This document shows positions 10,897-35,149 of a DNA stretch of 41,956 nt, piece by piece. A program made the position numbers and the translations under genes. The notes beneath the pieces were generated by a model. That model made no database searches and was not told the origin of the DNA. It saw only the letters and a list, made by a program, of their open reading frames with translations. The stretch is from Candidatus Iainarchaeum sp. (lineage in GTDB: Archaea > Iainarchaeota > Iainarchaeia > Iainarchaeales > JAAZKV01), in contig JAQVAR010000001.1 of NCBI GenBank assembly GCA_028690725.1, forward strand, positions 1-41,956. Direction: 5' to 3'. How positions within the stretch are numbered: the stretch's first letter is position 1; every line of letters begins with the position of its first letter.

Positions 10897-10899
10897 ATA

Positions 10900-12846: not shown

Positions 12847-13830
12847 ATGAATTATAATCTAAAACCAGAAACTTTTTTTGTAGAAGAAGATTACAAACCA
12901 AGATTAAAAGAAGAAGGCAAATATTTGTATTATGTTATAGAAAAAAAAGGTTTGAGTCACAAACAATTAATAAAAAGAATTCCAAAAGATGCATTATTCA
13001 ATGGTTTAAAAGACAAAAACGCAACAACAAAACAATGGTTTTGTACTAAACAAACAATAGAAAATATTTTTGAAAAAGATTTGAAAATAGAATACAAAGG
13101 AAAAAGTGATGAAAAAATATTTATTGGAAAACACAAAGGTAATAAATTTAAAATATTGTTAGAATTAAAAGAAAAAGAATTAAAAAAAATTAAAAAAATT
13201 AATTGGAAGAAAGAATTAATAACAAACTATTTTGGAAAACAAAGATTTGACAAAAGAATAAACAAATTCAATGAATTATTAGAAAAAAAAGATTTTGAAA
13301 ACGCATTAAAATTTTTTTTAACAGAAAAAAGTGATTATGATACACAAAAAAGCAGTGAAATAAAAAAAGAAATATTTACAAATTGGAATAATTGGAAAAA
13401 ACTTATTGAATCAAATATCCCAGAATCAAAAAAACCAATTTTTGAATTATTAGAAAAAGAAAAAGATTTTGAAAAAGCTTTTATGCTAACAGAAAAAAAA
13501 AGTTTAAAACAAATGCTAAAAGCAGTACAAGCAAAAAAATGGAACGAACTTCTACATAAGCAAATTTTGTTTTTTGTTGCAAACAATTTAGAAGGAAAAA
13601 AAGCTTCTAGGAATATTAAAAACAAATTAATATTAGAAGGAAATGATTTTGAAAAAAAATTTGGTTTAAATAAGTTAGACAGAGAAACATATTTTAAAAT
13701 AAAAAAATTCAAAATAAAAAAATCTAACAAGAAAAACAATTTTTGGATAGAATTTTATTTGAAAAAAGGTTGTTACGCAACAATTTTTATAGAATACTTA
13801 GAAAAAATTTTAACAGCGGCAAGAAACTAG
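12847..13830 (+). CDS. truD: tRNA pseudouridine synthase D (TruD/Pus7 family), compact form
   Basis: N-terminal PETFFVEE, catalytic-Asp motif GLKDKNATTKQWF, and NYFGKQRFD (compare TruD NYFGxQRFG). Confidence 0.75.
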   Translation: MNYNLKPETFFVEEDYKPRLKEEGKYLYYVIEKKGLSHKQLIKRIPKDALFNGLKDKNATTKQWFCTKQTIENIFEKDLKIEYKGKSDEKIFIGKHKGNKFKILLELKEKELKKIKKINWKKELITNYFGKQRFDKRINKFNELLEKKDFENALKFFLTEKSDYDTQKSSEIKKEIFTNWNNWKKLIESNIPESKKPIFELLEKEKDFEKAFMLTEKKSLKQMLKAVQAKKWNELLHKQILFFVANNLEGKKASRNIKNKLILEGNDFEKKFGLNKLDRETYFKIKKFKIKKSNKKNNFWIEFYLKKGCYATIFIEYLEKILTAARN

Positions 13831-15236: not shown

Positions 15237-17861
15237 TTGGGTGTTTGGTTGGACAAAAAATTTTTTATAATACTAATTTTAATAGGAATAATTTTTTTTA
15301 GTGGAAACGTTTTAGCAGAACCAAGCATAACAATCAATGGCGGAGAAACACACACTAATGATAATGATGTTATAGCTAGAATACTAAATACTGAAGATAT
15401 CAATTATTGTGTTACTCTATCAGACAATAATAATAATTGTGAGTGGATACTTTCAGAATTAGATGATATTAATATTGATATTACTCTTACAGGTGATGAT
15501 GGGGGAAAAGAAGTTTTTTTACACACCAAAAATAATTTGGTTTATGATACTAAGAGTGATACCATAATTCTTGATACTACTGGGCCAGTAATAACAGTAA
15601 ATGGAGTAACAGATGAAAACTATTACGATAATAATGTTTTCGCAATAACTATTGAAGCAGTTGATGCTAATGTTGGTAAATATAATGGAAAAATAACTTA
15701 TTCGTTAAATGAAAGTGATAAAAATATTTATTCTAGCCAAATTGATTGGACTCTTGAAGAAGGAAATTATGTTCTAGTTGTAGATGCAAATGATGATTTA
15801 GGAAATATTTCAACCAAAACAATTTCTTTCATAGTTGATATTACTGAACCATTATTATTAGGCGTGTTAAATGATTATTCCGGAATTGGTTCGTATACTA
15901 ATAGTGTAATGCCAACATTTACAATTTCTTTAGAAGAAGATAACCCAGACAAAATATTTTTTAGTTGTAGTAATGGTAGCAATTGGTTTGAAAGAAATTA
16001 TAATTCTACTATAAATGATTTTAATATTGTCTCAAGTAGTTATGATTGTAATAATGATGATGGAACTAAAACAATTTATGTAAAAATAAATGACAAATTT
16101 GGAAATACTGCAGGGCCAGTTACCACTACAATTAATTATGATGGAACATCACCAGCACCCCCAACAGGATTGAGTGTTAGTAATGGAAATAAAGAAGTAA
16201 CTGTTAGTTGGAATGCACCAACAGCAGATAATTTATCAGGAAACAAAGAATATGAAGTTTACAAGAATGGTGATTTGTATGCCACAACAACAAGCACTAG
16301 TAAAACTGTTACAGGTTTAACAAATGGGACTAATTACTCTTTCAAAATAAAGACAATTGACAATGCAGGTAATAAAAGTAGTTTTAGTTCAACTATTTCA
16401 GGAACACCACAATCATGTTCTTGCGAACTAACAATAAAAAGAAGTGGAACAAGCGTTGAATATGTTAAAGGTGGAGACAATTTACTAATTAGTTGTAACT
16501 GGGAAGAAGAAGTTGATGACGCAAAAATAAGATATAGATATTATGATGGAAGCTGGGAATCACTACAAAATTTGAGTAGTGAAGAAGACAACACTGATTT
16601 CATAGAAGAAAATATTAGTATTAATGGTAATAATGAGAGAATAGAATTTCAATGTATTGCTAGTAATGTTGAAACAAAAACAAAAACCATTTATATTGAC
16701 AACGAATTACCAACAATACAATGGAATGTTATAGATTCAACATTAAAAGAAACAAGAGAAATATCAGCAAATATTACTGATAATAAAAATATTAAGAGCG
16801 TTGAATTCGAATTAAATTCAGTAAAACATAACCCTACCAAAAGTGGAAACAAATATTATTTTAATTTGGACACAACAAAAATTGCTAATGGAACATATTC
16901 ATTAAAAGTAAGTGCTATTGATGAAGCAGGAAACCAATCACAAAAAACTACTACAATAACAATAGAAAACTTGTTAACAGAAGAACAAAAAAGAATAAAA
17001 GCAATTAATGATGCGAAAACAAAAAAAGTAATAGTAGACGACTTGATAAAATATTATGAAGAAAGAGGATTAAAACTAAGCGAAGAAATGCTAGGAGAAA
17101 AACAAAGAGCAGATGACTTATTAGAAGAAGCAGAAGAAACAGATAATAATACTGTTTCAAAAACAAAAGCAGAAGAAGCAAAAAGCATTTATGATAATAT
17201 AAATGAAAAAATTGTTTTCGAAAATGTTGAGAGCAAGAATTATGAATACGAAAAAGAAAATTTAACATTGTTATTATCAGGAATTGGATTAATAGGAGAA
17301 CAATTAGAACAAGCAAAAAATAATATTTTAGAAGGAAATGTTGAAAGAAAAATAACAATAATAAAAATTGGAGAAGAATATAGAGCACAAATAGAATTGA
17401 GTTTTGAATTAGGAGAAGAAGATTATATTATAGTAGAAGTTATTCCAAAAGAGTTTGTTGAAAACGCATCAAAAATATTTTCAAACACAGATTTTAACAT
17501 AATAGAAGATGATCCAGTAATAGAATTTTTAATAACAAAAGATATTAAAAAAATTTTTTACAGTATTGATGTAAAAGAAGAAGATGCAAATACATTAATG
17601 GATAATAATGTTATTGACTTATTTGCTTCACCACCAATAATATTAAAGGCTAATGAAAAAATAAGTATTGTTAAAGAAAATGGAATGTTTTTCATAATTC
17701 TAATAATTATTATACTAATAATAATATTGATTTGTGGAATAGGTTTCTTTGTTTTAAAAAATAACAAAAATGATTTTGGAAAAAACAACCCAATAGGAAA
17801 AATGAAAGAAAAATTATTAAAACCAGAAGAAAAGAAAAAGGATTGGAAGTACAAAGGGTAA
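15237..17861 (+). CDS. Secreted, C-terminally membrane-anchored surface protein with Ig-like repeats, one fibronectin type III domain and a coiled-coil stalk
   Basis: Sec-type N-terminus DKKFFIILILIGIIFFSGNVLA|EPS. FN3: PAPPTGLSVSNGNKEVTVSWNAPT...YEVYKNGD...TGLTNGTNYSFKIKTIDNAGN. K/E-rich helical region around 16980-17400. C-terminal transmembrane segment MFFIILIIIILIIILICGIGFFVL followed by a basic tail. The start is TTG (15237 or 15249); there is no in-frame ATG. Confidence 0.8.
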   Translation: MGVWLDKKFFIILILIGIIFFSGNVLAEPSITINGGETHTNDNDVIARILNTEDINYCVTLSDNNNNCEWILSELDDINIDITLTGDDGGKEVFLHTKNNLVYDTKSDTIILDTTGPVITVNGVTDENYYDNNVFAITIEAVDANVGKYNGKITYSLNESDKNIYSSQIDWTLEEGNYVLVVDANDDLGNISTKTISFIVDITEPLLLGVLNDYSGIGSYTNSVMPTFTISLEEDNPDKIFFSCSNGSNWFERNYNSTINDFNIVSSSYDCNNDDGTKTIYVKINDKFGNTAGPVTTTINYDGTSPAPPTGLSVSNGNKEVTVSWNAPTADNLSGNKEYEVYKNGDLYATTTSTSKTVTGLTNGTNYSFKIKTIDNAGNKSSFSSTISGTPQSCSCELTIKRSGTSVEYVKGGDNLLISCNWEEEVDDAKIRYRYYDGSWESLQNLSSEEDNTDFIEENISINGNNERIEFQCIASNVETKTKTIYIDNELPTIQWNVIDSTLKETREISANITDNKNIKSVEFELNSVKHNPTKSGNKYYFNLDTTKIANGTYSLKVSAIDEAGNQSQKTTTITIENLLTEEQKRIKAINDAKTKKVIVDDLIKYYEERGLKLSEEMLGEKQRADDLLEEAEETDNNTVSKTKAEEAKSIYDNINEKIVFENVESKNYEYEKENLTLLLSGIGLIGEQLEQAKNNILEGNVERKITIIKIGEEYRAQIELSFELGEEDYIIVEVIPKEFVENASKIFSNTDFNIIEDDPVIEFLITKDIKKIFYSIDVKEEDANTLMDNNVIDLFASPPIILKANEKISIVKENGMFFIILIIIILIIILICGIGFFVLKNNKNDFGKNNPIGKMKEKLLKPEEKKKDWKYKG

Positions 17862-17926: not shown

Positions 17927-20674
17927 ATGAATACTGCAGCAATAATAGGAGCAGGACCAGCTGGATTGATAACAGCAATAAAATTGAAAAAAGAGGGTTT
18001 TGATTCTATCATTTTAGAAGAACATGAAGAAATTGGTTCACCAGAAAACTGTTCAGGATTAGTATCAAGAAAAGGTTTAGAAGAACAAAAAATTAATTTT
18101 GAAGAAACAATACAAAACAAGATAAGAGGAGCAAAAATTTTTTCTCCAAATGGAACAGAATTAAAAATCACTAGACCAGAAACAATCGCTTATGTTTTAG
18201 ACAGAAAAAAATTTGATTTAGAATTATTAAAAAAAGCAAGACAAATGAATATTCATGTAGCAACTAACACCAAATTATTGGATGTTAGAAAAAATACTCT
18301 TTTTGTACAAGCAAACGGGAGAGGAGAAATGAGAAAAGCAGAATATATTGTGGGAGCAGACGGAGTTAATTCTACTGTAAGACATTTGATTGGAACACAA
18401 ACAAATAGAAACAATTTTGTTCATACAATACAATCAACGTGCATAGGAGAATTTGAAAAAGAATATGTTCAATTATACTTAGGAGATTATGCAAAAGGAT
18501 TTTTTGCATGGGTAATACCAATAGATGAAAAAAAAGCAAAAATTGGATTAGGAAATATTTTAGGAGAAGATGTTACTAAAAATTTTAAACAATTTTTAAC
18601 AGAAAAAATGCCAAATGTAAAAGTATATTCTACAAAATCATCATTGATTCCATACGGAGCACCATTAGAAGGAATACAAAAAGAAAATTTAGCATTAGTT
18701 GGAGATGCAGCATTCCAAACAAAAGCAACTAGTATTGATTATGAAGAGCCTATTTTGTTAATGGACGACAACGGATTTATTAGGAATAATAAAATAGGTG
18801 AATTAGTTGATAAAGAACTAACCAATCCTGAAAACGAGATTATTATTTCAGAAAATAATGAAATAGTATCTACTAAGAATGAAATCAAAGCATTTTCACC
18901 CTCAAGAAATGCTAATACAAATAAATTTAGAACCATAAAGACAATGCTTAGGCATAAAATTGAAGAAGATTTATACGAAGTCGAATTACAAAAAGGATAT
19001 AAGGTTAAAGCCACTGCAAGCCACAGCATAATGGTTGTTACACAAAATGGTTTTGAAGAAAAATACACAAATCAAATTATTCCAGGAAAAGATATTATTG
19101 CATTAAATGCAAATATTCCAAAAGGAAAAATGATTCATGAAATTAATCTAATAAAAGAATTTTTAGTACATGATAAAGAATTTTCAAAACAAATACAAAT
19201 ATTAGGAGAAAAAGAAAAGATTTATTCTAATTATTTAGAAGTAAATAAAAACAAAATTACTCAACACTGGTATAATAATATAATCCCATTAAACAAGTTT
19301 ATAGAAAAAGGAATATTGCCTGATAATTCAATAATCTCGATTAAGAAAAGTAAGTTTAATTATAAAAACAAATTACAAATTACGCCTGAATTTTGTAGAC
19401 TTCTTGGATATTTTATAGCAGAAGGATCATTTAAAAATAATAATTTAACTATGACTTTTGGAATGAATGACATTAAAAAAGGAGTTGTTAATGATGCATT
19501 GTTTTGTATAGAAAAAAGTCTTGGAATTAAAGCTGAAAAACCAACTATAAAATTTAATCCTTTAACAAAAAAAGAATCGGCAGTATCAATTACATTTGGT
19601 GGAACAATAGCTATGAAATTATTTGAGATTATTGATACAGGAAGAGGTGCTAAGAATAAACAAGTCCCTTGGATTATTTTTAATGTTGAGGATGAACTAA
19701 AAATTGAATTTTTAAAAGGTTATTTTAGAGGTGATGGAACTTTAAGAATTCGAATTGGAAAAAATTCAAGGAATGATTCTATTGAATTATCAGCAAAAAC
19801 AATTAGTAAAAAACTTATTAGCGATTTAATAATTATTTCAATGCAACTAAATTTATTCCCATCAATTGAAAGCGAGAATAAAAAAGAACACACAATTCTT
19901 GAAAAAAAAGTTAAATTACAACCAAGTTATAGAATTGTCTTCTCAAGAATACAAGATATAAAAAAGTTGATTGATATATTTCCAGAAATGAAATCAAAAT
20001 GCTTGGCTTTTTTAGAAAACAAGAAAAGTAGAGAAACAATTAGTTTACCAATAGAATTACTAAGTACACAATCTATTAAATCACAAGAAATGAAATCCAT
20101 TTTTGGAAGCAATATTCAAGATTATAATAACTTAGGTTATCAAAGATTAAAATTAGCCACAAAAAATAATGTATGTGAAAACGAATTTATTAATAATTTA
20201 ATAAAACAAGGCATAATCTTATTAAAAGTTAAAAAAATAAACAAAATTAACCCTACAACAAAATATGTGTATGATGTTGAAATTCCAGAAACACAAATGT
20301 TTTGTGGCGGAATGGGACCAATATTATTACACAACACGGGAGGAGGAGTAGTATTCGGGATGAGAGCAGGAAATATTTTGGGAGAAACAATTGCTAACAC
20401 AATCAAAAAAAAATCTAAATTAAGCGATTACGAAAAAAATTTGAAAGAAATAAACAAGGAATTGAGAATGCATTGGAAAATAAGAAAATATGTTAACGAA
20501 TTAAGCAACGAACAAATAAACAAATTATTTGAAAAATTAAAATCAAAAGGAATAGAAGAATTTTTAGAAAAAGAAGGAAACATGGACGAACCAAGCAAGT
20601 TTATTGGAAAACTAGCAAAAAAACCAGCATACTGGTTCATGGCAAAAACATTACTTGGAATAGCAAGAAGCTAA
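17927..20674 (+). CDS. Geranylgeranyl reductase family FAD-dependent oxidoreductase (digeranylgeranylglycerophospholipid reductase-like), interrupted by an intein
   Basis: N-extein: AAIIGAGPAGLITAIKL (GxGxxG), EYIVGADGVNSTVR, LALVGDAAFQTKAT. C-extein: TGGGVVFGMRAGNILGE. The exteins total about 380 aa, the normal length for this family. Confidence 0.9.
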   Translation: MNTAAIIGAGPAGLITAIKLKKEGFDSIILEEHEEIGSPENCSGLVSRKGLEEQKINFEETIQNKIRGAKIFSPNGTELKITRPETIAYVLDRKKFDLELLKKARQMNIHVATNTKLLDVRKNTLFVQANGRGEMRKAEYIVGADGVNSTVRHLIGTQTNRNNFVHTIQSTCIGEFEKEYVQLYLGDYAKGFFAWVIPIDEKKAKIGLGNILGEDVTKNFKQFLTEKMPNVKVYSTKSSLIPYGAPLEGIQKENLALVGDAAFQTKATSIDYEEPILLMDDNGFIRNNKIGELVDKELTNPENEIIISENNEIVSTKNEIKAFSPSRNANTNKFRTIKTMLRHKIEEDLYEVELQKGYKVKATASHSIMVVTQNGFEEKYTNQIIPGKDIIALNANIPKGKMIHEINLIKEFLVHDKEFSKQIQILGEKEKIYSNYLEVNKNKITQHWYNNIIPLNKFIEKGILPDNSIISIKKSKFNYKNKLQITPEFCRLLGYFIAEGSFKNNNLTMTFGMNDIKKGVVNDALFCIEKSLGIKAEKPTIKFNPLTKKESAVSITFGGTIAMKLFEIIDTGRGAKNKQVPWIIFNVEDELKIEFLKGYFRGDGTLRIRIGKNSRNDSIELSAKTISKKLISDLIIISMQLNLFPSIESENKKEHTILEKKVKLQPSYRIVFSRIQDIKKLIDIFPEMKSKCLAFLENKKSRETISLPIELLSTQSIKSQEMKSIFGSNIQDYNNLGYQRLKLATKNNVCENEFINNLIKQGIILLKVKKINKINPTTKYVYDVEIPETQMFCGGMGPILLHNTGGGVVFGMRAGNILGETIANTIKKKSKLSDYEKNLKEINKELRMHWKIRKYVNELSNEQINKLFEKLKSKGIEEFLEKEGNMDEPSKFIGKLAKKPAYWFMAKTLLGIARS
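18731..20335 (+). mobile_element. Intein (535 aa) with a LAGLIDADG homing-endonuclease domain
   Basis: In frame. Starts with Ser (SIDYEEPILLMDDNG, block A). Block B is KATASHSIM (TxxH). The two dodecapeptide motifs are LLGYFIAEGSF and FLKGYFRGDGTL. Blocks F/G are KYVYDVEIPETQMF...ILLHN, followed by Thr at +1. Confidence 0.85.
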
Positions 20675-20741: not shown

Positions 20742-23537
20742 ATGTTTTTTTCCAATAAAATCCAAAAAATAATAAAAGATTTTTTTTCATTAAAACAAAA
20801 AACCTTTGGAAAAAAAATAATTGCACAAGGAACAATTGAATATCTAATTATTATTGCTATAATAGTTGTTATTGGACTAGTGGTAGTAGGATTAACAATG
20901 GAATTGTTTGACAACCAACAAATAGGACAATCACTAGGACAAATAAAAGGACAAACAGGAACAAGCGGAATAACAATAATGGATTCTGTTGCAGGATTAG
21001 ATTCTAATGGCTTACTAGTTTTAAAAAATTCTAATCCAGAAACCTTAACAATAAACACTATTATTATTGATGATGAAGAACACAATTATGATTACTCTTT
21101 ACCAATGGGTTCACAAATGGGATTCAAATTACAAAATATTGCTAATTGCGATGGAACAACAAAAAATTATACAATAATAATAGAATACACTACTAATTAT
21201 GGATTGGAAAAAACCATTAACTTAGGAACAATAACAATTGATTGTGCAGAAACAGTAGAACCAACAAAAAAATTTATAGAAAAAATAGAAGAAGAAATAA
21301 TTTACATAGTTTCTTTTGATAGTCAAGAAGCTGACACAAATGCTAACCCAACAAGTATGATTGTTATACCACCAGAAACAACAATAGAAGAATTACCAAC
21401 AGAACCACAAAAAGAAGGATATATTTTTGGAGGATGGTACACTCAAATTAATGGGGGAGGAACAGAATTTACTACAAACACTATTATAGATAACAACATT
21501 ACTGTCTACGCTTATTGGAGTGATTGTGAAGAAGGAGAATTTTTGTTTGAGGGAGAATGTATAGCATGTATTAATGGAGAAGGAATAGATTTTTTTGGTG
21601 GAACAGGAGAAGAAGAAACACCATATCAAATATGTGATTGGAACCAATTAAATAATGTTAGATATTACCTTGATGCTAATTTTATTTTAATTAATAATTT
21701 GAGTAATAAAACAAGTAATTATGAAGGAATAGGAGATGATTTCGAACCAATAGGATATGGAACAGGGTGGAATTATTCAATATTTACAGGAATTCTTGAT
21801 GGAAATGAACATACAATAAGTAATTTGAAAATAAATAAACCCGATGATTCGTATATTGGTTTGTTTGCGTACTTAGATTCTGAAAGCAAAATAAAAAATA
21901 TTGGTTTGATTGACATTAATATTGTTGGTCTTGGTTATACTACAAGTTTTGCAGGCAGAATACAAAATGGGTTAATTGAAAATAATTATGCAACAGGAAT
22001 AATCACAAGTATTTCTTTCAGCGCTGGTGGGATAACAGGAGTCCAATATAACGGAACAATAAATAATTCTTATTTCACAGGAACAATTATTGGTGGTAAT
22101 GGTACCGGAGGAATAACAGGAGTTCACTATGGTGGTACGATTGAAAATTCTTACATGACAGGAAACATAACTAGCCCTTCTAATATGGGAGGAATAGTTG
22201 GTTTAAAAAGTGGTGGAACAATTGAAAATTCTTATTATGATTATGAAAATGTTTTAATAAATGGAGAAAATATTTTAACAATTGGTGCTCTAACAAACGA
22301 AAATTTTGATTTTTGGATTGAAAATGACAAATTTTTTGATGTTGATAATTATTTAACAAAAGAAGGAGAATATTATTTAATAAATAATGTTTCAGATTTA
22401 GAAAAATTATTAATTTTTGGGCAAGATTCTTCTCTAAATTTTAAAATACAAAATAATTTAGATCTTACTGGAAACGAAGGACTTTACATACCATATTTAG
22501 CAGGAAATTTAGAAGGAAATGATAAAAACATTTTAAACCTAAAAGTAAATCTTCCTCTTGTTTCAAATATTGGATTATTTGGTTACACAATAGGAAACAT
22601 TTCAAATATTGGTGTAATAGATGCAAATGTTATTGGAAGAAGATATGTTGGAGGTTTAGCAGGAATAACAAACGGAACAATTGAAAATATATATGCAACA
22701 GGAAACGTAACTGGTTACGAAGATGAAATTGGGGGGTTAATAGGATATCAAATTAGTGGAACAATCACAAACTCTTACACAACAGGAAATGTAACTGGGG
22801 GCAATACTGTTGGAGGATTAGTAGGAAGTTTAAAAGGAATAATTACAAATTCTTATACAACAGGAAATACAATAGGAGGGCATAATACTGGAGGGTTAGT
22901 GGGAAATTCTTATGGAACAATTTCAACTTCATACACAATAGGAAATATAGAAGGATATTATGGAGTTGGAGGGATATCCGGAAGACAAATGGGCGGGTTA
23001 ATTGAAAAATCTTATTCAACAGGAAACAAAACAGGTGAAGACGGAGGCATTGGAGGAATAGTTGGATACCAACAAGGAGGACTTATTTCTAACACTTATG
23101 CAATAGGAACAAATACAGGAAATAATAGTGTTGGAGGAATTACAGGAGTACAAACAGGTGCCAAAATTGAAAATTCTTATGCAATAGGAAACATAAATGA
23201 TATTAGTTGGTTTGCTGGTGGGTTAATAGGAATACAATATGAAACAGGAACAATTGAAAACGCATATGCAACAGGAAACGTAACTGGCGACAATTCAGTT
23301 GGTGGGTTAGTTGGATTTTCCAGTGGAACAATCACAAATTCATATTGGGATACAATATTAAGTGGGCAATCCAATTGTTATCGCGATGGTAATATTGGTT
23401 GTACATCAACAACAAATAATGAAACATATTATTATAATTCTAGTAATTCACCATTAAGTTCATGGACATGGGGAATAGACGGAAATTGGACTACAAGAGA
23501 CAATAATTATCCAATATTAACCTGGCAAACACAATAA
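20742..23537 (+). CDS. Giant pilin-like surface protein: class III (prepilin-type) signal peptide, conserved N-terminal module, Listeria-Bacteroides repeat, and GLUG-type repeat array
   Basis: KKIIAQGTIEYLIIIAIIVVIGLVVVGL; VSFDSQ...PQKEGYIFGGWYTQ...ITVYAYW; many repeats of about 26 aa in the form NSY-TGN-TG---VGGL-G---G-I; C-terminal YPILTWQ. Confidence 0.85.
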   Translation: MFFSNKIQKIIKDFFSLKQKTFGKKIIAQGTIEYLIIIAIIVVIGLVVVGLTMELFDNQQIGQSLGQIKGQTGTSGITIMDSVAGLDSNGLLVLKNSNPETLTINTIIIDDEEHNYDYSLPMGSQMGFKLQNIANCDGTTKNYTIIIEYTTNYGLEKTINLGTITIDCAETVEPTKKFIEKIEEEIIYIVSFDSQEADTNANPTSMIVIPPETTIEELPTEPQKEGYIFGGWYTQINGGGTEFTTNTIIDNNITVYAYWSDCEEGEFLFEGECIACINGEGIDFFGGTGEEETPYQICDWNQLNNVRYYLDANFILINNLSNKTSNYEGIGDDFEPIGYGTGWNYSIFTGILDGNEHTISNLKINKPDDSYIGLFAYLDSESKIKNIGLIDINIVGLGYTTSFAGRIQNGLIENNYATGIITSISFSAGGITGVQYNGTINNSYFTGTIIGGNGTGGITGVHYGGTIENSYMTGNITSPSNMGGIVGLKSGGTIENSYYDYENVLINGENILTIGALTNENFDFWIENDKFFDVDNYLTKEGEYYLINNVSDLEKLLIFGQDSSLNFKIQNNLDLTGNEGLYIPYLAGNLEGNDKNILNLKVNLPLVSNIGLFGYTIGNISNIGVIDANVIGRRYVGGLAGITNGTIENIYATGNVTGYEDEIGGLIGYQISGTITNSYTTGNVTGGNTVGGLVGSLKGIITNSYTTGNTIGGHNTGGLVGNSYGTISTSYTIGNIEGYYGVGGISGRQMGGLIEKSYSTGNKTGEDGGIGGIVGYQQGGLISNTYAIGTNTGNNSVGGITGVQTGAKIENSYAIGNINDISWFAGGLIGIQYETGTIENAYATGNVTGDNSVGGLVGFSSGTITNSYWDTILSGQSNCYRDGNIGCTSTTNNETYYYNSSNSPLSSWTWGIDGNWTTRDNNYPILTWQTQ

Positions 23538-23640
23538 AAAAAAAACAACAAAATATATAAATACTATAAACAAATTATATATAAAGTAGAAAACAAAATT
23601 TAATAAAAAAATTATATTTTAAAAGTATTTAGGTGTCTAA

Positions 23641-26448
23641 TTGAAAAAAAATATTAAAAAAGAATTTGTTGCACAAGGAACAATAGAATATCTGACAATA
23701 ATAGGAGTAATTGTTGTTATTGGTTTGGTTGTTGTTAGCTTGTTAACAAATGTTTTTGATGATACACAAAATATTTCTTCTACAACAACAAAGATTAGTT
23801 CAATCACAGGAATAATTAGCATCAGTGAAACAATTGTTGATAATGAAGGAAATGGTTTAATTGTTTTATCAAACAATTCTAATGAAACACTAACAATAAA
23901 AAGTTTGAGTATTAATGGTGTTAACATAGATTATCCAAATACTATTTTGACTCAAAGTGTTGAAAAAATTTTTAGTTTAAATAGTTTGGATGATAACTGT
24001 TCTTGTGTTGGTTTTGAAGGTAAAATGAAAACTTGTGAAATAACAATTTATTATACTTCTAAATATGGTTTAGAAAAACAGGTTACAACAAATATTGTTG
24101 TTGATTGTGTTGATGAAGCAACTCCAAAAAATTTATCTAATTTGATTCTACCAACTTCATCAAGAACATATGAAATAATGTTTAACATAAAAAATTCTTC
24201 CACTAATTTACATTTAACTGATTTTAATATTAATTGTAATGATGAAACACATAATTTTACTAACCAAGAATCTCCTACATTAATTGATTTTAATGGAGGG
24301 GTTTATTCTTGTGATTTTTCAAAATTAGGTTATGATTCAAATAACATAACAATAAACGCTAATAGTGACAAAAATATTGATGTTTATTTAACTCAACAAA
24401 GTGAATTATTATCAAATTGTGGTACATTAGATGCTGAAAAAATTTATTTTTTGGAAAATGATATTGGTTCTGGCGAAAATTGTTTGATAATTGAATCAAA
24501 TAATATATTAATAAATGGTAACAGTCACACAATAACAGGAAATATTGTCGCAGATGGTGCAGAAGGAATAGCTGCTTATACAGGATTATCGTTATCTAAC
24601 ATTAATGTTGTTGGAACAGTAAGTGCAATCGGAGGAGGAGGCTCAAACACAGCAGGCTCAGGAGGAACAGTAACAGTAACTAATAATTCTAATATAACAA
24701 CAATAAATACAACGGGAGGATGGAACACGTATAGTACTCCTGGTGAAGGAGGAGCAGTAACAATAACAGATTCTAATGTAGAAACAATAACCACAACTGG
24801 GGGAGCAGGACATTTTAATCGACCAGGTGAGATAGCTGGGGCAGTAACACTTACTAATTCAATTATAGAGACAATAACAGCAAAAGGAGGAAATGGCACA
24901 TATAGTGGTGGAAAAGCAGGTGGAATAATAACAGCAAATAATTCAGTTATAATAACTATTGATGCAACAGGCGGATCAGGAGGACACCAAGGTGCTGGAG
25001 GAGCGGGAGGAACAATAACATTAACAGATTCTAATATTGTGACAATAATTTCTTTAGGAGGAAATGGCGCTTATGGGGCAACAGCAGGAGCTGGTGGAAC
25101 AATAACATTAACTGATTCAAATACAACAACAATAACAGCAACAGGTGGATCAAGTAGTGGACCAGGCGGAGCAGGAGGAACAATAACATTAACTAATTCC
25201 AATATAAAGAAAATAAATACTATTGGTGGGAATGGAAATTATGGAGGAGTAGGAGGAAATGTTAATATAATTTCCCAAAATTTAGATTTATCAAATATTG
25301 AGATAGATATTAATTATGGATCTGGAGACCCACATCACGATTCAGGAACACTTATACTCAATTTTTCAAATTCTTTTACAGATACTGGAGCTAGTTATAA
25401 CAAAAATTTAAAAGGATTAAAAATTGTTCGTAGTGGAGTCGGAGAAATTTATTGGAATGAGACCAGTATATGCGAAGGAACACCAGATAATTCAAATTGT
25501 TCTCAATGGGGTGGGTCTTGGAATGAAGAACAATGTACTAGATATGAAAACCGCGGAGGACAATGTACTTGGCCAGAACATTCTTGTATAGATGTCAGTG
25601 GAGGAGATTGCAGTAATGCTTATGATGAATCAGAATGTCTTAATAACATATACCCAACAGGATGCGACACTTGGATTCCTGGAGTTTGTGAAGATGTAGG
25701 CGGAGGAAGTTGTACAGGAGCATGGGATGAATGGGAATGTATTTATATGAAATATCCTTCAGGATGTAATTGGACACCAAATCCTATTTCTTGCATGTAT
25801 GCTCCCGGGCCAGGTTGTGTAGAAGGATCATTTTCTTGTGATGATTGTATTAATGAATCTAGTTGTAGTGTTTGTGGTGGATGGTGGGGAAGCGAAGGAG
25901 GAATTTGTGAAGGAACAGGAAGCGGATGCGAAGGAGCAACAAATAGTATGTGGTGTAATGATTATTCAGGTTGTGAATGGTCGTTAGGTTGGGAAGAAGG
26001 AATTTGTGAAGGAACAGGAAGCGGATGCGAAGATTTAAACAACTATAATAGTTGTTGGAATTATTCAGGTTGTTCATGGTTCGGAGACCCTTGTACTGGA
26101 ACAGTTACTTGCGAAGCACAAATTTCACTTGAAGCTTGCCAAGAAATAACTGGTTGCGCATACTCTGCAAGTAGTATTGATTCATCCTCTTTTACAAATT
26201 TATCAAATAATATTATAATTGAACAAAATTCTGTTTATTTAAATTCTACTGCTATACCTTCTTTAAATATTGATGCTAATATTACTCTTTATTTAACTGG
26301 ATTAGAAATTACAAATCCACAAGTATTAAAAGATGGAATTGAATGTAATTCTCCTAGTTGTGAAATATTAAGTTATGATTCTGAAATAATTATATTTAGA
26401 GTAACAAGTTGGGATAATGCAATATATACTATTGCAGAATCATCATAA
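23641..26448 (+). CDS. Giant pilin-like surface protein: class III signal peptide, the same N-terminal module, Gly-rich beta-helix-like repeats, and a Cys-rich repeat domain
   Basis: TTG start 5 nt after AGGTG. MKKNIKKEFVAQGTIEYLTIIGVIVVIGLVVV. Repeats of the form GG-G...GAGGTITLTDSN--TI. About 30 Cys between 25471 and 26157. Confidence 0.85.
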   Translation: MKKNIKKEFVAQGTIEYLTIIGVIVVIGLVVVSLLTNVFDDTQNISSTTTKISSITGIISISETIVDNEGNGLIVLSNNSNETLTIKSLSINGVNIDYPNTILTQSVEKIFSLNSLDDNCSCVGFEGKMKTCEITIYYTSKYGLEKQVTTNIVVDCVDEATPKNLSNLILPTSSRTYEIMFNIKNSSTNLHLTDFNINCNDETHNFTNQESPTLIDFNGGVYSCDFSKLGYDSNNITINANSDKNIDVYLTQQSELLSNCGTLDAEKIYFLENDIGSGENCLIIESNNILINGNSHTITGNIVADGAEGIAAYTGLSLSNINVVGTVSAIGGGGSNTAGSGGTVTVTNNSNITTINTTGGWNTYSTPGEGGAVTITDSNVETITTTGGAGHFNRPGEIAGAVTLTNSIIETITAKGGNGTYSGGKAGGIITANNSVIITIDATGGSGGHQGAGGAGGTITLTDSNIVTIISLGGNGAYGATAGAGGTITLTDSNTTTITATGGSSSGPGGAGGTITLTNSNIKKINTIGGNGNYGGVGGNVNIISQNLDLSNIEIDINYGSGDPHHDSGTLILNFSNSFTDTGASYNKNLKGLKIVRSGVGEIYWNETSICEGTPDNSNCSQWGGSWNEEQCTRYENRGGQCTWPEHSCIDVSGGDCSNAYDESECLNNIYPTGCDTWIPGVCEDVGGGSCTGAWDEWECIYMKYPSGCNWTPNPISCMYAPGPGCVEGSFSCDDCINESSCSVCGGWWGSEGGICEGTGSGCEGATNSMWCNDYSGCEWSLGWEEGICEGTGSGCEDLNNYNSCWNYSGCSWFGDPCTGTVTCEAQISLEACQEITGCAYSASSIDSSSFTNLSNNIIIEQNSVYLNSTAIPSLNIDANITLYLTGLEITNPQVLKDGIECNSPSCEILSYDSEIIIFRVTSWDNAIYTIAESS

Positions 26449-30280: not shown

Positions 30281-31684
30281 ATGATGAATAACATTGGGTT
30301 TTGTGTTATTGAAACAGATTTTTCTAAACAAATTAGTATTTGTAAAAGTGGGCAAATTGTAAAAAAAAGGGACAAAAACTATTTTTTGTTAGATTTTCCA
30401 ATTTTCAATGAGAAAGAAAAAAAAATTTTTTCAAATATTTCTGAAAATTTAAAAGAAACAATAAAATATGTTAAAACAAAATCAGACATTTATTTTCTTA
30501 TAAAAGAATTTTGTTTAGAAAATTATGTGTTGTTAAAAAAAGAACAAAGAGAAAAAATTTCACTAGTTTTAGAATGGGAAATGCTAGGAAATAGCATTTT
30601 AGAACCATTATTGAAAGATCCTGATTTTGAAGAAATTGTTATCAATGGAAAAGATAAACCTTTAATGTTATACCATAATATTTTTGGTTGGCTTACAAGC
30701 AATATTTATTTTAATTCTGACGAAAAAATAAAAACAATAATAAACAAAATTTCTTCACCATTAGGAAGACAAATCAGTTTTAATAATCCAATTTTAAATG
30801 CAACTTTAAGTAATGGTTCAAGATTGAATGCTTCAATGGATCCAATAGCATTCACAGGAATAAATGTTACTATAAGAAAATTTAAAGAAAATCCTTTAAC
30901 ACCAACAAACATAATAAATTTTAACACTATTAACACAGAAGCAATGGCTTTTTTGTGGTTGGTAATGCAAACTTCATCCTCAATAATGGTTTGTGGAAAT
31001 ACTGGTTCTGGAAAAACGACTACATTAAATTCATTATTTTGTTTTTTGCCAAAAGATGAAAGAATTATAGTAGTAGAAGAGACCCCAGAAATTGTTTTAC
31101 CACAAGAACATATAGTAAAATTGAATACTGCAGAACAATTGAATATTGGATTAGAAAAACTAATAGAAAATACTTTTAGAATGAGACCAGACAGAGTAAT
31201 AGTTGGAGAAATTAGAAGTAAGAAAGAAGCACACGCATTCATTAATACCATGTTAGCAGGACAAGCAAAAGGAAGTTATGCTACTTTTCATGCTGAAAGT
31301 GCTGAAGATGCTTTAGAAAGACTAAATACTTTTGGTATTGAAAAAAATGCTTTGAAAACACTTGATTTAATAATAGTTCAAAAAAGAATTACAAAAATTG
31401 ATAACAAAAAAAGTAGGAGAGAAGAAAGAAAAATAACAGAAATATGTGAAGTAAAAAAAGATTGCGGAGAAATAAAATTAGAAAAATTATTTCTTTTGAA
31501 TTATTCTAACGGATTAATTGAATTAAAAAATGATTCTAAAAGATTGAAAGAAAAAATAAAACAAACTTTTTCTTGCAAAGAAAAAGAATATTACGAATTA
31601 TTAAAGGAAAAAGAACAAATTTTGAAAAATCTTGGAGAAGGAATTTCTTTCAAAGAATTTTTTGAACTGGCTTATAACGAATAA
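30281..31684 (+). CDS. Type II/IV secretion-family ATPase (archaeal type IV filament assembly ATPase, FlaI/EpdL/TadA-like)
   Basis: Walker A VCGNTGSGKTTTLNSL, Asp box RIIVVEETPEI, Walker B RPDRVIVGEIR, His box GSYATFHAES. Confidence 0.9.
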   Translation: MMNNIGFCVIETDFSKQISICKSGQIVKKRDKNYFLLDFPIFNEKEKKIFSNISENLKETIKYVKTKSDIYFLIKEFCLENYVLLKKEQREKISLVLEWEMLGNSILEPLLKDPDFEEIVINGKDKPLMLYHNIFGWLTSNIYFNSDEKIKTIINKISSPLGRQISFNNPILNATLSNGSRLNASMDPIAFTGINVTIRKFKENPLTPTNIINFNTINTEAMAFLWLVMQTSSSIMVCGNTGSGKTTTLNSLFCFLPKDERIIVVEETPEIVLPQEHIVKLNTAEQLNIGLEKLIENTFRMRPDRVIVGEIRSKKEAHAFINTMLAGQAKGSYATFHAESAEDALERLNTFGIEKNALKTLDLIIVQKRITKIDNKKSRREERKITEICEVKKDCGEIKLEKLFLLNYSNGLIELKNDSKRLKEKIKQTFSCKEKEYYELLKEKEQILKNLGEGISFKEFFELAYNE

Positions 31685-31721: not shown

Positions 31722-33173
31722 TTAATAATCTTTTGCAATGTAAACTACTTTAGTGGCTTTTTTTCCACAAATAACACACTTTTTATTTCCAATAAAATTT
31801 TCTTTAACATCAATTCTTGTCCCCCTTATTTTTCCACCGGATTCTTTTTCAATTATTTCAGCACAACCCAAACCATCTTTTTCAACACTACAAAAATTTG
31901 CTCTTGCAATTCCTCTTCCAACAATTTTTTTTATTTCATTAATATTTTTAACATCTTTTATTAATCCATCAAAATTATTAATTGCTTTTTTCTTCAAATT
32001 TTTACTTAATTCAAAACCATTTTTTTCTATTTCTTTTAACAAATCTTTTTCATTAATTAAAACTTTTTTTTCTGTATCTCTTCTATATAATAAAAACTTT
32101 TTTTCTTTTAAATCACGAGGCCCTATTTCTATTCTTAGTGGAACGCCTTTCATTTCCCAATAATAAAATTTTTCTCCAGGTCTTTTATCACCATCATCTA
32201 ATTCAACTCTGTAATTAGCTTCTTCTAATTCTTTTTTAAATTTAAAAGCTTTTTTTAAAACATTTGGATCTTTTTCTGAAAGAATAGGAATAATTACTAT
32301 TTGTTTTGGTGCTATTTCAAAAGGAAATTTTAATCCTTTATTATCACCATGAGTTAATATTACCGAAGCCATTATTCTTGAAATACAAGGTCCATAACAA
32401 GTTGTAAAAGGAGTTTTTTCAACCTCATTTTTATCAAAATATTTTACTCCAAAAACTTTTGGAAAATGATTATTTATCATGTGTGTGCTAGGCTGTTGTA
32501 CCACTCTTCCTTGAGGAGTAATAGCGTCAGCACCAAATGTTCTTCCAGCACCAGCAAATTTATCCCAAGCTGGTCTTTCAAAAACAATTGTTGGAACACC
32601 AAATATTTCAAAAACAACTCGCTTAGTAGTTTCAATATCATCTAAAACGCTTTGAAAAGCCTCTTCTTTTGTTTCAAAAGCACAGTGGGTTTCAATCCAA
32701 TAAAATTCTCTTGATCTCAAAAAAGGCCTTGTTGATTTTGTTTCATACCTATAAACATTTGCTCTTTGATATGTTTTAAAAGGCAAATCTTTATAAGAAC
32801 GAATCCATAATGAAAACATTGTATAAAAAGCTGTTTCAGAAGTTGGTCTGAGAGCTAATCTTTCTTCTAATTTTTCGTTACCACCTTTTTCAACCCAAAA
32901 AACTTCAGGAGTAAAACCAGCAATGTGTTCTGATTCTTTTTGAAAATATGATTCTGGAATCAAAGAGGGAAACCAATAATTTTTGTGACCTCTTTTTTTC
33001 AAATCTTTTTCAAAAAAATCATACATTAGCTCCATGCATTCAACGCTCCAAGGTTGAAAAACAAGAGCCCCTTTAACACCATACCTGATATCTGCTAGTT
33101 CTGCTTGTTTTATTATTTCAGTATACCATTCGCTTGGTTTTTCAGAATAATCAGGTAATTTTTGAACAGCCAT
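31722..33173 (-). CDS. proS: Proline--tRNA ligase (archaeal/eukaryotic type)
   Basis: PSEWYTEIIKQAELADIRYGVKGALVFQPWS, class II motifs (FRSREFYWIETH, GRVVQQPSTH), C-terminal Cys cluster and terminal Tyr (...CVICGKKATKVVYIAKDY). The ATG at 33171-33173 is preferred over the TTG at 33197. Confidence 0.95.
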   Translation of the reverse strand: MAVQKLPDYSEKPSEWYTEIIKQAELADIRYGVKGALVFQPWSVECMELMYDFFEKDLKKRGHKNYWFPSLIPESYFQKESEHIAGFTPEVFWVEKGGNEKLEERLALRPTSETAFYTMFSLWIRSYKDLPFKTYQRANVYRYETKSTRPFLRSREFYWIETHCAFETKEEAFQSVLDDIETTKRVVFEIFGVPTIVFERPAWDKFAGAGRTFGADAITPQGRVVQQPSTHMINNHFPKVFGVKYFDKNEVEKTPFTTCYGPCISRIMASVILTHGDNKGLKFPFEIAPKQIVIIPILSEKDPNVLKKAFKFKKELEEANYRVELDDGDKRPGEKFYYWEMKGVPLRIEIGPRDLKEKKFLLYRRDTEKKVLINEKDLLKEIEKNGFELSKNLKKKAINNFDGLIKDVKNINEIKKIVGRGIARANFCSVEKDGLGCAEIIEKESGGKIRGTRIDVKENFIGNKKCVICGKKATKVVYIAKDY

Positions 33174-33320
33174 TAAAACCAATAAAATTGAACACAAAAA
33201 GGGTTTTAAAGATTGTTTTTCAATTGAAAAAGCTTATTCAAAATTAGCAATATTAAAATTTGTTCAGACAATTGACGATTTTCTACAATATTTTTTAAAT
33301 GATAAAAAAATGTTTTTTTT

Positions 33321-34154
33321 ATGAAAAAAGAAAAAAAGGATGAAAAAAATATTGAATTAATTAAAAATATTTCAAAAAAATCAATTGTAAAAGAAAAAAT
33401 TTTGAAAAAAGCAAATGTTAGAGAAAAAGAATTTGAAAATTATAAAAAAAAATGTTTTTCTTATAGTATTATTTTTTCTCTTTTTGTATTAATGTTTAGT
33501 TGGTTATATTTATATGATATTATTTTAAGTTTTGGAATAATGTTTTTTGTATTTACAATAATTTTTTTAATTGGAATAAATTTACCATTTATTAAACACA
33601 AAAAATATACTAAAAAAATTGAATCAGAAACAGCTGGTTTTTTAACAAACCTTATTATTGAATTAAAAGTTGGAAAAGATTTGTTAAGTGCTATTAAAAA
33701 ATGTTCTTTAGAAAAAGAAAATATTGCAAAAGAATATGGGGTTGTTCTAAACCTTGTTGAAAATGGATTATCTTTTAGAGAAGCACTCTTATTAATGAAC
33801 AAAAAATTTAATTCTTTGAATATAAAACGAACAAATAGTAATTTGTATAATATTTATCAACATGGGAATGATGTTTTTGGATTGAAAAAATTTGCTGATG
33901 AACTATTGTTAAGACAAAGAATTGAAAGTAAAGAATTTGGTGGAAAATTAGTTGTGTATGCGTTAGTTTTTATTGCTGTTTCAGCCATTGTTCCAGCAAT
34001 GTTCGCGAGCTTTATTCTAATAGGGAGTTATTTTATGCAAATACAATTTAGCGCATTACAAATTTTTTTTATATTAGTAATATTGTTTCCAATAATAGAT
34101 TTGTGTGTTTTGATATCAATCAATTCAAAAACACCAATATTTTTGAGGAGATAA
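33321..34154 (+). CDS. Type IV filament platform protein with a single T2SSF domain (TadB/TadC/EpdJ-K-like)
   Basis: Transmembrane hairpin, a soluble helical domain (FLTNLIIELKVGKDLLSAIKKCS...ENGLSFREALLLMNKKF), then two C-terminal transmembrane segments. This is the GspF/TadC half-protein topology. Confidence 0.7.
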   Translation: MKKEKKDEKNIELIKNISKKSIVKEKILKKANVREKEFENYKKKCFSYSIIFSLFVLMFSWLYLYDIILSFGIMFFVFTIIFLIGINLPFIKHKKYTKKIESETAGFLTNLIIELKVGKDLLSAIKKCSLEKENIAKEYGVVLNLVENGLSFREALLLMNKKFNSLNIKRTNSNLYNIYQHGNDVFGLKKFADELLLRQRIESKEFGGKLVVYALVFIAVSAIVPAMFASFILIGSYFMQIQFSALQIFFILVILFPIIDLCVLISINSKTPIFLRR

Positions 34155-34207: not shown

Positions 34208-35149
34208 TTGGATGCAGTAGATTTTTTTAAAAATTTTTTTGAAATTATTTTTGGAAAAGAAAAAATAATTAATTTTGAAGATACTCTAATTGTAAATGAA
34301 TCAAGATTCAAAAAAATAGAAAAATTTATTTTTGCTTGTGTTTTAGAAGGAATTTTTCTAACTATTTTTTCAATGATCATATTATTTTTTATTAACTTTG
34401 AAATAAACAAAACAATTTTTATTTCAATACTAATTTTTTTTGTTCCTTTTTTAATAAATTTTTTGTGGCAAGATCTTTTTTTTGAAAAGAGAAAAAGAAA
34501 AAAAGAATCTTTATTACCAGAGTTTTTGTTAGAAGTAAGCGTTTTTTGTGATGAAAATTCAATAATAAAAAATGTTGAAAAAATGAGTAAAATTGATATT
34601 TCTTTAATAAAAAATGATTTTGAAAGGGTTGATAGAGAAATAAAAAATGGTTCAAGTGTAAAAGAATCTTTTGAAAGAATGAAAAAATTAAATAAAAGTA
34701 AAACTATTAACAGAGTAATAGATATTTTTTTACAATGTTATGAAAATGGTTTAAAAATGTCTTTCTTATTAAAAGAAACTGCTGAAGATTTGATGGAAAA
34801 TAATGCTATTTTGAAAGAACAACAAGCAGTAATGCTTGTAACAAAATATACTTTGTTATTATCATCAGCATTAATTGTTCCAAGTATTTTGGGAATAATA
34901 ATTGGTTTGGTTAATAATCTTAATTTTGATTTTGCAGAAGGATTTGAAATTGGTTTAAGTGCTGTTGAAAAAAAAGAACTTTTTTCATTTTCTGTGTTAG
35001 GAACCACAATATATATTATAGAATTTGCTTTGCTAAGCAGTTTTTTCTTGGGCTTACAAGAGGGAAACAAAAAACAATTTTGGATTTATGCAATGATAAT
35101 TGTTCCAATTGCATTAATTTGTTTTTTTCTAGCACAAACAATGGGTTAA
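34208..35149 (+). CDS. Second single-T2SSF-domain platform protein (TadC/EpdJ-K-like)
   Basis: Same topology. LPEFLLEVSVFCDENSIIKNVEKMS...IKNGSSVKESFERMKK...IDIFLQCYENG. TTG start; no in-frame ATG nearby. Confidence 0.65.
   Translation: MDAVDFFKNFFEIIFGKEKIINFEDTLIVNESRFKKIEKFIFACVLEGIFLTIFSMIILFFINFEINKTIFISILIFFVPFLINFLWQDLFFEKRKRKKESLLPEFLLEVSVFCDENSIIKNVEKMSKIDISLIKNDFERVDREIKNGSSVKESFERMKKLNKSKTINRVIDIFLQCYENGLKMSFLLKETAEDLMENNAILKEQQAVMLVTKYTLLLSSALIVPSILGIIIGLVNNLNFDFAEGFEIGLSAVEKKELFSFSVLGTTIYIIEFALLSSFFLGLQEGNKKQFWIYAMIIVPIALICFFLAQTMG

Follow-up and report, generated by a model that had tools for sequence, protein, structure and literature searches.

Two tandem open reading frames (ORFs), here named ORF1 and ORF2, lie at positions 20742-26448 of a 41,956-nt contig from a metagenome-assembled genome (MAG) labelled 'Candidatus ainarchaeum sp.' (Iainarchaeota, DPANN/Nanobdellati). 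The contig, with a GC content of about 25%, was analysed over its whole length and is referred to as the window. The original prediction held that both genes encode proteins of about 930 residues that start like type IV pilins and continue into giant adhesin-like bodies. Both ORFs are present exactly at these positions, and the N-termini quoted for them are correct: a basic leader is followed by the motif A-QGTIEYL and, directly after it, by some 20 hydrophobic residues. The unusually long leader of ORF1 ends in ...KTFGKKII-A and is followed by QGTIEYLIIIAIIVVIGLVVVGL; ORF2 starts with MKKNIKKEFV-A, followed by QGTIEYLTIIGVIVVIGLVVVSL. A TATA-like TTTATAAA (20714-20721) lies about 20 nt ahead of the ATG of ORF1, and a Shine-Dalgarno-like AGGTG box (23631-23635) is found 5 nt upstream of the TTG of ORF2. 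A six-frame motif scan of the window returned ORF1 and ORF2, the sole further match falling inside a membrane protein for polysaccharide synthesis, in a segment unrelated to them. The 874-aa surface protein encoded upstream of ORF1 bears an ordinary Sec signal (...FFSGNVLA-EPS), which argues that the pilin-like N-terminus is specific to ORF1 and ORF2 in the window.

When ORF1 and ORF2 are compared by BLASTP, only the first 170-250 residues or so align. The two proteins have an N-terminal region of about 165 residues in common (34% identity, E=1e-12), and the bodies that follow are unrelated to each other. The body of ORF1 contains a Listeria-Bacteroides repeat (Flg_new), a short Cys-rich segment and two blocks of GLUG repeats. 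The body of ORF2 contains Gly-rich repeats, suggestive of a β-helix or solenoid, and a region rich in Cys and Trp. This agrees with the large, repeat-rich and adhesin-like bodies of about 750 residues originally described. A PDB sequence search of both bodies gave nothing informative except the internalin B (InlB) B-repeat matched by ORF1, and the ORF2 body matched neither Pfam models nor PDB sequences.

The shared N-terminal region defines a very large protein family. A word-indexed homolog search with the ORF2 module yielded only four relatives, and an exhaustive profile search was needed to reveal the family. Scoring of the head profile against 1.84 billion cluster representatives (clusters at 50% identity) returned 1,224 proteins at E≤1e-3, 708 at E≤1e-10 and 225 at E≤1e-30. 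The best 150 matches always comprise the full module of about 160 residues, and always at the N-terminus. With more than 1,200 clusters in their family, the proteins are no rarity. Where the N-terminus is intact (148 members), Q at +1, E at +5 and Y at +6 are invariant (148/148 each), and G at +2 (146/148), T at +3 (141/148) and L at +7 (147/148) are nearly so. The residue at -1 is either A (127/148) or G (21/148). The leader varies and is in many cases basic, and positions +6 to about +25 are taken by hydrophobic residues. The frequency of the top residue is 0.97 from -1 to +7, 0.69 in the helix, which is tightly constrained and has small residues at +11, +17 and +22, 0.53 in the predicted β-sandwich and 0.24 in the leader. 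Since the module is common to both ORFs and the AQGTIEYL motif is near-invariant in 148 homologs, this motif is not a product of chance. Furthermore, a plain membrane anchor would not account for conservation anywhere near this strong in the signal and the helix, across bodies that are unrelated. A literature search for QGTIEYL brought up no paper with this motif.

Two further features of the module are worth recording. An invariant 'NNS' in the β-sandwich forms a potential N-glycosylation sequon. In addition, eight family members carry a duplicated leader, in which a first 'AQGTIEEPF...' without a hydrophobic stretch is followed by a basic linker of about 10-25 residues and then by the real 'AQGTIEYL' helix. 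The entries recorded under this arrangement are the ORF1 leader, P0025, P0048, P0089, P0096, P0106, P0129 and P0147. The ORF1 leader, IQKIIKDFFSLKQKTFGKKII, appears to be a degenerate copy of such a duplication (compare P0025, AQGTIEEPFLLKQKTLGKKTI). The duplicated leader could stem from recombination between paralogs at the conserved 5' end, act as a regulatory peptide or reflect a mis-set start.

The fusion of this module with grafted adhesive domains is the rule in the family. Members range from about 160 to more than 1,366 residues, with a median of 535 among the cluster representatives and 590 in the genomic loci. Module-only members of pilin size (≤200 residues, about 180) account for 5 of the 90 complete members in loci (about 5%), with examples at 5375-5914 in L028 and 5243-5815 in L018, and all others are extended C-terminally. 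A Pfam census of 75 members found, behind the module, GLUG repeats (27 members), SBBP β-propellers (9), Big_7 (9), Peptidase_M26_N (7), Laminin_G_3 (6), Lcl_C (6), Gly_rich_2 (5), DUF5018 (5), NHL (4) and Flg_new (3). The pattern is that of a modular pilin, with a head of about 165 residues followed by GLUG, Flg_new, LamG, SBBP, immunoglobulin-like (Ig), Lcl_C and other domains. No solute-binding domain of ABC transporters was among the Pfam matches of ORF1, ORF2 or the 75 relatives, and membership in a bindosome was therefore rejected.

Signal layout, predicted fold and searches for related structures and sequences were used to assess the nature of the head. ORF1, ORF2 and the family at large show the layout of a class III signal: the leader is charged, position -1 is occupied by a small residue, and some 20 hydrophobic residues come directly after the predicted cleavage site. 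The conserved block precedes the hydrophobic stretch, which is the opposite of a signal peptidase I (SPase I) site and led to the rejection of a Sec/SPase I reading. Together with the small residue at -1 and the Glu at +5, this order points to a substrate of a prepilin peptidase rather than of SPase I. The EppA-processed pilins of Methanococcus (PF04021, DUF361) carry the motif 'QXSXEXXXL' or QxSxE[F/Y]L, and bacterial Flp pilins carry GxxxxEY. We take the [G/A]xxxxEY signal of the family to be of this Flp/Epd type, with Q+1, E+5 and Y+6 resembling EppA substrates. The Pfam model Class_IIIsignal (PF04021) matches 11 of the 75 relatives at E≤1e-3, the best at E=1.7e-5.

With five sequences, AlphaFold modelled the module at a predicted local distance difference test score (pLDDT) of 72. 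With an alignment of 47 sequences, the AlphaFold 2 (AF2) model reached a pLDDT of 87 and shows a helix at residues 15-40, running on to 55, and a seven-stranded β-sandwich at residues 59-156 with pLDDT≥95. The predicted fold is thus a long N-terminal helix with a β-rich globular domain. Both Foldseek runs against the PDB placed archaeal type IV pilins on top, led by the Pyrobaculum arsenaticum pilus (6w8u, E values of 2e-5 and 6e-5). Further matches were the pilins of S. islandicus (6nav), S. acidocaldarius (Aap, 8q30), P. calidifontis (8fk7) and S. solfataricus (6w8x) and the archaellin of H. salinarum (9eq7). When the sequence profile was searched against the PDB, the S. acidocaldarius Aap pilin (8q30) was again the best match (E=0.012), and the alignment covers the helix, the linker and the first strands. 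A comparison of the profile with the single sequence by hhalign gave a probability of 75%, on the first β-hairpin alone (LIVLSNNSNETLTIKSLSINGVNIDY versus TITVKNTGTTSISVTSININGQPFNI). A homolog search for the Aap pilin, intended for a profile-profile comparison, returned nothing. Each of these lines is weak to moderate; in combination, they make a divergent pilin module of archaeal type the best reading of the head.

The genomic setting of the family was studied with one genome per GTDB species, in 78 loci kept as the best of 117 confirmed ones, with more than 593 pattern matches listed. Among the matches listed, all relatives derive from archaea not in culture, such as Ca. Iainarchaeum, 'ainarchaeum' and Ca. 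Forterrea. Two or three members occur in about 22 of 79 loci, often in tandem as in the window. As lower bounds, the MAG JBBSVX holds at least nine family genes, JBAZKP at least eight, and JAQUZG and JBAZUY at least seven each. The paralog load amounts to at least six to nine per genome of about 1 Mb, and the module takes up roughly 1% or more of some of these genomes. A third paralog with a LamG domain, P0007 (MDD3083769.1), probably comes from the same MAG as the window. No relatives were found in viral contigs, which argues against an origin as viral receptor-binding proteins. Two contigs holding family members are binned as bacteria (L033, labelled Planctomycetales, and L054, labelled Shapirobacteria). 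The 452-aa ORF of L033 is identical in coordinates, length and profile score to an ORF in the archaeal locus L034, so that L033 and L054 are probably mis-binned archaeal contigs.

Three relatives (L001, L052 and L072) carry the same head followed by an Lcl_C domain, which is C-type-lectin-like, and are variable proteins of diversity-generating retroelements (DGRs). In L052 and L072, the cassettes are complete: the target gene with its variable repeat (VR) is followed by bAvd, a template repeat (TR) and a reverse transcriptase (RT). The VR/TR mismatches fall on TR adenines in 19 of 19 cases in L052 and 19 of 20 in L072. The third element, in L001, is seen in part, with only the start of the TR at the contig end and four of four mismatches on adenines. 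This pattern implies that ligands are bound at an exposed surface, and it shows selection, in at least part of the family, for variable binding of ligands outside the cell. ORF1 and ORF2, in contrast, were ruled out as DGR targets, because the window contains neither a VR/TR pair nor Avd or RT. Both are also devoid of Lcl_C domains. In the literature covered, which does not include the main DPANN DGR paper (Paul et al. 2017), no paper describing DGR targets as pilin-like was found, and the N-termini of DGR targets are called 'TM domain or signal peptide' only.

Downstream of ORF2, the window encodes candidate filament machinery. The original prediction of a type IV filament ATPase and platform genes 4-9 kb downstream is borne out: a T2SSE-type ATPase and two T2SSF-like proteins are encoded 3.8-8.7 kb from the end of ORF2 (Table 1). 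By their sequences, the latter two form a split, TadB/TadC-like platform. Two T2SSF-like ORFs with one T2SSE gene match, by gene layout, the Epd/Tad 'system 1'. A split platform is the layout of system 1 (Epd-type) and also of some DPANN systems (bioRxiv 10.64898/2026.04.22.720090). The ATPase may serve ORF1 and ORF2, a link that we infer. A prolyl-tRNA synthetase gene (ProRS) on the opposite strand splits the ATPase gene from the platform genes, and no pilin gene adjoins either. Archaeal pilin genes often stand alone (PMC4858521).

Several other genes in the window concern the cell surface. With ORF1, ORF2, the 874-aa protein and a 1,500-aa protein that is a candidate S-layer or major surface protein, the contig is rich in large surface proteins. 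The gene next after the latter encodes a protein with seven transmembrane (TM) segments and has a 61%-identical homolog in L029; it was rejected as an A24-family peptidase, as only one Asp is conserved between the two. A glycan-synthesis cluster at the start of the window could glycosylate surface proteins. Directly upstream of ORF1 lies a geranylgeranyl-reductase-like FAD protein that is split by an intein. In 7 of the 78 related loci, a conserved 4-TM protein of about 215 residues, without a match in Pfam or NCBIfam, is encoded no more than 10 kb away from family members, and in L068 and L070 directly beside them. Invariant in this protein are, among others, D89, H96 and, as part of a 'YLDPE' motif, D141. 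This protein has no GxGD motif and does not look like an A24 peptidase.

Table 1. Coordinates of the features discussed, in the window and in related loci (L numbers).
Sequence	Feature	Coordinates	Strand	Remarks
Window	Glycan-synthesis cluster	629..10306		FkbM methyltransferases, GT2 glycosyltransferases, Wzx-like flippase, GDP-mannose 4,6-dehydratase/epimerase
Window	874-aa surface protein	15237..17861	+	Sec-type signal; Big_13, fn3 and Big_7 domains
Window	Geranylgeranyl-reductase-like FAD protein with intein	17927..20674	+	Intein of ~500 aa with LAGLIDADG homing-endonuclease domain; Intein_splicing E=1.9e-19
Window	ORF1	20742..23537	+	931 aa, ATG start; MDD3083415.1, NCBI name 'GLUG motif-containing protein'; putative pilin-headed modular surface protein; identical to family member P0008
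Window	ORF1 leader	20742..20825	+	28 aa, ends ...KKIIA; resembles degenerate copy of the duplicated leader 'AQGTIEEPF..K..' of 8 relatives
Window	ORF1 predicted mature N-terminus	20826..20903	+	QGTIEYL, then hydrophobic helix
Window	ORF1 conserved N-terminal module	20742..21269	+	aa 1-176; class III-type signal and predicted β-sandwich; hmm positions 2-164, E=6e-64
Window	ORF1 Listeria-Bacteroides repeat (Flg_new)	21303..21512	+	aa 188-257; matches InlB B-repeat in PDB
Window	ORF1 GLUG repeat region	21996..23363	+	~27-aa period, two blocks, about aa 419-874, limits approximate; 10 Pfam stretches, E=1.3e-30
Window	ORF2	23641..26448	+	935 aa, TTG start; MDD3083416.1, NCBI name 'hypothetical protein'; putative pilin-headed modular surface protein; identical to family member P0005
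Window	ORF2 leader	23641..23673	+	11 aa, MKKNIKKEFVA
Window	ORF2 predicted mature N-terminus	23674..23751	+	QGTIEYL, then hydrophobic helix
Window	ORF2 conserved N-terminal module	23641..24132	+	aa 1-164; predicted helix 15-55 and 7-strand β-sandwich 59-156 (AF2 pLDDT 87)
Window	ORF2 Gly-rich repeats	24538..25320	+	~28-aa units (GGxGxxGxxGGTITLTxSNIxTI), about eight, roughly aa 330-560, limits approximate
Window	ORF2 Cys/Trp-rich repeat region	25438..26145	+	32 Cys between aa 611 and 839
Window	Archaeal type IV filament ATPase (T2SSE)	30281..31684	+	FlaI/TadA-like, ~470 aa; below archaellum equivalog cut-off; candidate assembly motor
Window	ProRS	31722..33197	opposite	
Window	T2SSF-like platform protein 1	33321..34154	+	21.5 bits, just under Pfam cut-off 25.2
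Window	T2SSF-like platform protein 2	34208..35149	+	26.1 bits, Pfam cut-off 25.2
Window	1,500-aa protein	36036..40538	-	N-terminal signal peptide, C-terminal TM anchor, no Pfam match
Window	7-TM protein	40583..41197		
L052	DGR	1907..4968		
L052	DGR target gene	1907..3034		
L052	VR	2918..3029		At 3' end of target gene
L052	TR	3706..3817		
L072	DGR	10022..12943		Same target-bAvd-TR-RT layout as L052
L072	DGR target gene	10022..10972		
L072	VR	10851..10968		
L001	Partial DGR	10001..11606		
L008	4-TM protein	4600..5256		
L009	4-TM protein	9472..10137		
L020	4-TM protein	8386..9042		
L035	4-TM protein	1166..1840		
L047	4-TM protein	9904..10530		
L068	4-TM protein	4675..5304		
L070	4-TM protein	8843..9448		

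Taken together, we consider it somewhat better than even (a probability of roughly 0.55) that ORF1 and ORF2 are archaeal modular pilins, serving as minor or tip subunits of a Tad/Epd-like filament. Each protein most likely consists of a pilin module of about 165 residues, with a class III signal, a hydrophobic helix and a small β-sandwich, onto which an adhesin-like body of about 750 residues has been grafted. The prepilin would be inserted into the membrane, where a prepilin peptidase of the Epd/EppA or PibD type would cleave past A(-1) and leave Q(+1) as the first residue. Through the invariant QGTIEYL-helix, the protein may then be docked in a type IV filament of the Tad/Epd kind, within its helical core. 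Such a filament would be assembled by an ATPase and a split, TadB/TadC-like platform of the sort encoded downstream. A common partner, comprising the peptidase and the filament core or platform, is suggested by the first 25 mature residues, which are near-invariant across unrelated bodies. Since steric reasons make it implausible that every subunit bears a body of 750 residues, the giant members would be low-abundance or tip subunits, and the module-only members of about 180 residues could form the shaft. The ligands of the bodies, finally, would be found on surfaces, on particles or on other cells. Cleavage, incorporation into a filament, location at the tip and the ligand are all steps that we infer.

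A number of observations weigh against ORF1 and ORF2 being filament pilins. In hidden Markov model searches for class III signals and pilins, ORF1 scored 13.6 bits with Pfam Class_IIIsignal, below the cut-off of 23.7, and ORF2 gave no match; a search of both proteins with NCBIfam models for class III signals or pilins gave no match either. The residue at -2 is not K or R in ORF1 and ORF2, although these are the commonest at that position in the family (59/148). No A24 prepilin peptidase was found among the ORFs of the window or the 62 multi-TM ORFs of the 78 related loci (about 1 Mb of sequence), whose Pfam matches are to transporters, PAP2, Rce1-like and similar families. The class III prepilin pattern originally proposed holds for every sequence feature. 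For the first 165 residues or so, a helix with a β-sandwich is predicted and archaeal pilins rank on top, but the second half of the helix (residues 41-57) is of low confidence in the AF2 model, Foldseek TM-scores are 0.3-0.5 with a root-mean-square deviation of 14-16 Å, and generic proteins with a TM helix and an Ig domain (a TRAP subunit, PmoB) are interleaved with nearly equal scores. The genes between ORF2 and the ATPase, which encode UPP synthase, a rubrerythrin-like protein, Ogg, Hsp20 and DUF192, are unrelated housekeeping genes. The expected co-occurrence of homologs with T2SSE/T2SSF genes failed at the level of loci. A T2SSE ATPase lies within 10 kb in only 2 of the 78 loci (L031 and L048), which is about chance expectation for genomes of about 1 Mb with one to three such genes, and for these loci a neighbourhood association was rejected. 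Furthermore, the motif scan found no small major pilin with the same signal in the window. Overall, the original observation is confirmed and its interpretation supported in part.

Part of this evidence favours a pilin-type signal used for membrane display only, a less probable yet serious possibility. The proteins, cut or uncut by a class III peptidase, would then stay anchored in the cytoplasmic membrane by the helix, perhaps in short bindosome-like or pseudopilus assemblies, and would display their adhesin bodies at the cell surface with no long filament. Such a role would agree with the scattering of the family genes, unlinked to pilus machinery in all but the two loci mentioned, and with the very large bodies (medians of about 535-590 residues), which are awkward for filament packing. 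There is archaeal precedent in the sugar-binding proteins of Sulfolobus and many predicted binding proteins with class III signals (bioRxiv 10.64898/2026.04.22.720090; PMC4858521), and the usual description of DGR targets in cells is that of binding proteins anchored in the membrane (PMC8144416). However, a mere anchor would need neither an invariant QGTIEYL with a tightly constrained helix that has small residues at +11, +17 and +22 nor a conserved pilin-like β-sandwich. Substrate-binding-protein domains are missing from the 75 members surveyed, and module-only members of pilin size exist.

The likeness to pilins might also be convergent, with ORF1 and ORF2 belonging to a lineage-specific family of ordinary Sec-exported or signal-anchored proteins of the surface or S-layer. 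Neither Pfam, NCBIfam nor the NCBI annotation names them pilins, and the structure matches are weak and shared with generic TM-Ig proteins. We nevertheless regard this as quite improbable, as the conserved block stands N-terminal to the hydrophobic segment, in reverse of an SPase I site, the E+5 and the small -1 residue are invariant, and the Sec signal of the 874-aa neighbour shows that a normal signal in the same genome looks different. Independent searches by sequence and by structure, moreover, both rank archaeal pilins on top. A still more doubtful proposal takes the pilin reading to its extreme and makes the proteins major subunits, each with its body of about 750 residues, in a thick 'bottle-brush' adhesive fibre. 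Large members do far outnumber the module-only ones, and no small pilin is encoded beside ORF1 and ORF2 or beside the ATPase. Known type IV filaments rise by about 5-10 Å per subunit, and 80-kDa bodies on every subunit are sterically implausible with such a rise. Nor does one dominant gene stand out among the at least six to nine different paralogs of a genome, and bacterial modular pilins are minor subunits (PMC10191384). The preferred reading therefore remains that of minor or tip pilins with grafted adhesin-like bodies.

Little is known about the attachment of DPANN archaea to surfaces or partners, and annotation is missing for most of their surface proteins. In public records, neither the module, the family nor the link to DGRs is annotated. 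A tentative wider proposal is that Iainarchaeota and related DPANN use a Tad/Epd-like filament as a programmable display scaffold, in which one invariant pilin 'plug' carries a library of at least six to nine interchangeable adhesin cargoes, including lectin pilins hypermutated by retroelements. In that case, the lineage would rely mainly on this device to find hosts, particles or prey and to hold on to them, and the retroelement-targeted members would, to our knowledge, be the first pilins described as DGR-diversified. The host-dependence assumed in the original prediction is uncertain for Iainarchaeota, which according to a review may be free-living (PMC6349945). By the conserved and easily recognised N-terminal module, over 1,200 protein clusters can be picked out as probable cargo of type IV filaments. 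Should cleavage and filament incorporation be confirmed, the modular-pilin principle, so far established in a few bacteria, would apply to archaea as well, on a much larger scale; candidate proteins for the binding of hosts or particles could be listed by name, and the QGTIEYL N-terminus would offer a handle for proteomics, antibodies and cryo-electron tomography in enrichment cultures.

Among known systems, the bacterial modular minor type IV pilins, such as PilB and PilC of Streptococcus sanguinis (PMC10191384, PMC9934059), share with ORF1 and ORF2 the class III signal, the pilin module and the C-terminally grafted, non-pilin adhesive domains. They also share the 'cut and paste' logic by which many different domains are grafted. 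In contrast to these, the family has an archaeal-type β-sandwich, much larger bodies, of up to more than 1,300 residues, and at least six to nine paralogs in genomes of about 1 Mb; its genes are not in a pilus operon. The Epd pili of Methanococcus and the bacterial Tad/Flp pili are alike in Q+1, E+5, an aromatic residue at +6, the split platform and an ATPase of about 470 residues. However, the major pilins of Epd and Flp are tiny and lack a globular domain (bioRxiv 10.64898/2026.04.22.720090), whereas ORF1 and ORF2 carry a β-sandwich and giant bodies. Furthermore, PF04021 is sub-threshold in ORF1 and absent from ORF2, and no EppA-like peptidase was identified in the window or the related loci.

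The adhesive pilins of the Aap/PilA type (8q30; S. islandicus, 6nav; Pyrobaculum, 6w8u and 8fk7) are the best structural match and the best PDB sequence match, with an N-terminal helix, a linker and a β-sandwich opening with an 'I-x-V-K-N-T-G...I-x-I-x-G' hairpin. They are major subunits of 130-140 residues without added domains, and the likeness is weak (E~0.01, TM-scores of 0.4-0.5). The Sulfolobus bindosome and the large class III proteins predicted as 'adhesin or minor pilin' in archaeal type IV pilus loci (PMC4858521; bioRxiv 10.64898/2026.04.22.720090) resemble the family in being large, extracellular and equipped with a prepilin-type signal. Unlike these, the family is devoid of solute-binding domains, has its own pilin-like β-sandwich and an invariant motif, is specific to DPANN and lies outside type IV pilus loci. 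DPANN variable proteins of DGRs with a C-type-lectin/Lcl_C (DUF1566) fold (PMC5006420, PMC8144416) are like the targets in L001, L052 and L072 and unlike ORF1 and ORF2. The pilins of DPANN have been acknowledged as dark matter (PMC6393860). The principle is thus known, from modular pilins in bacteria and from large class III-signal proteins predicted in other archaea. New are a DPANN family, sharply defined and of very large size, whose signal is invariant and Tad/Epd-like and which has a predicted pilin-like sandwich of its own, giant cargo as the norm rather than the exception, a high paralog load in reduced genomes and members that are targeted by DGRs.

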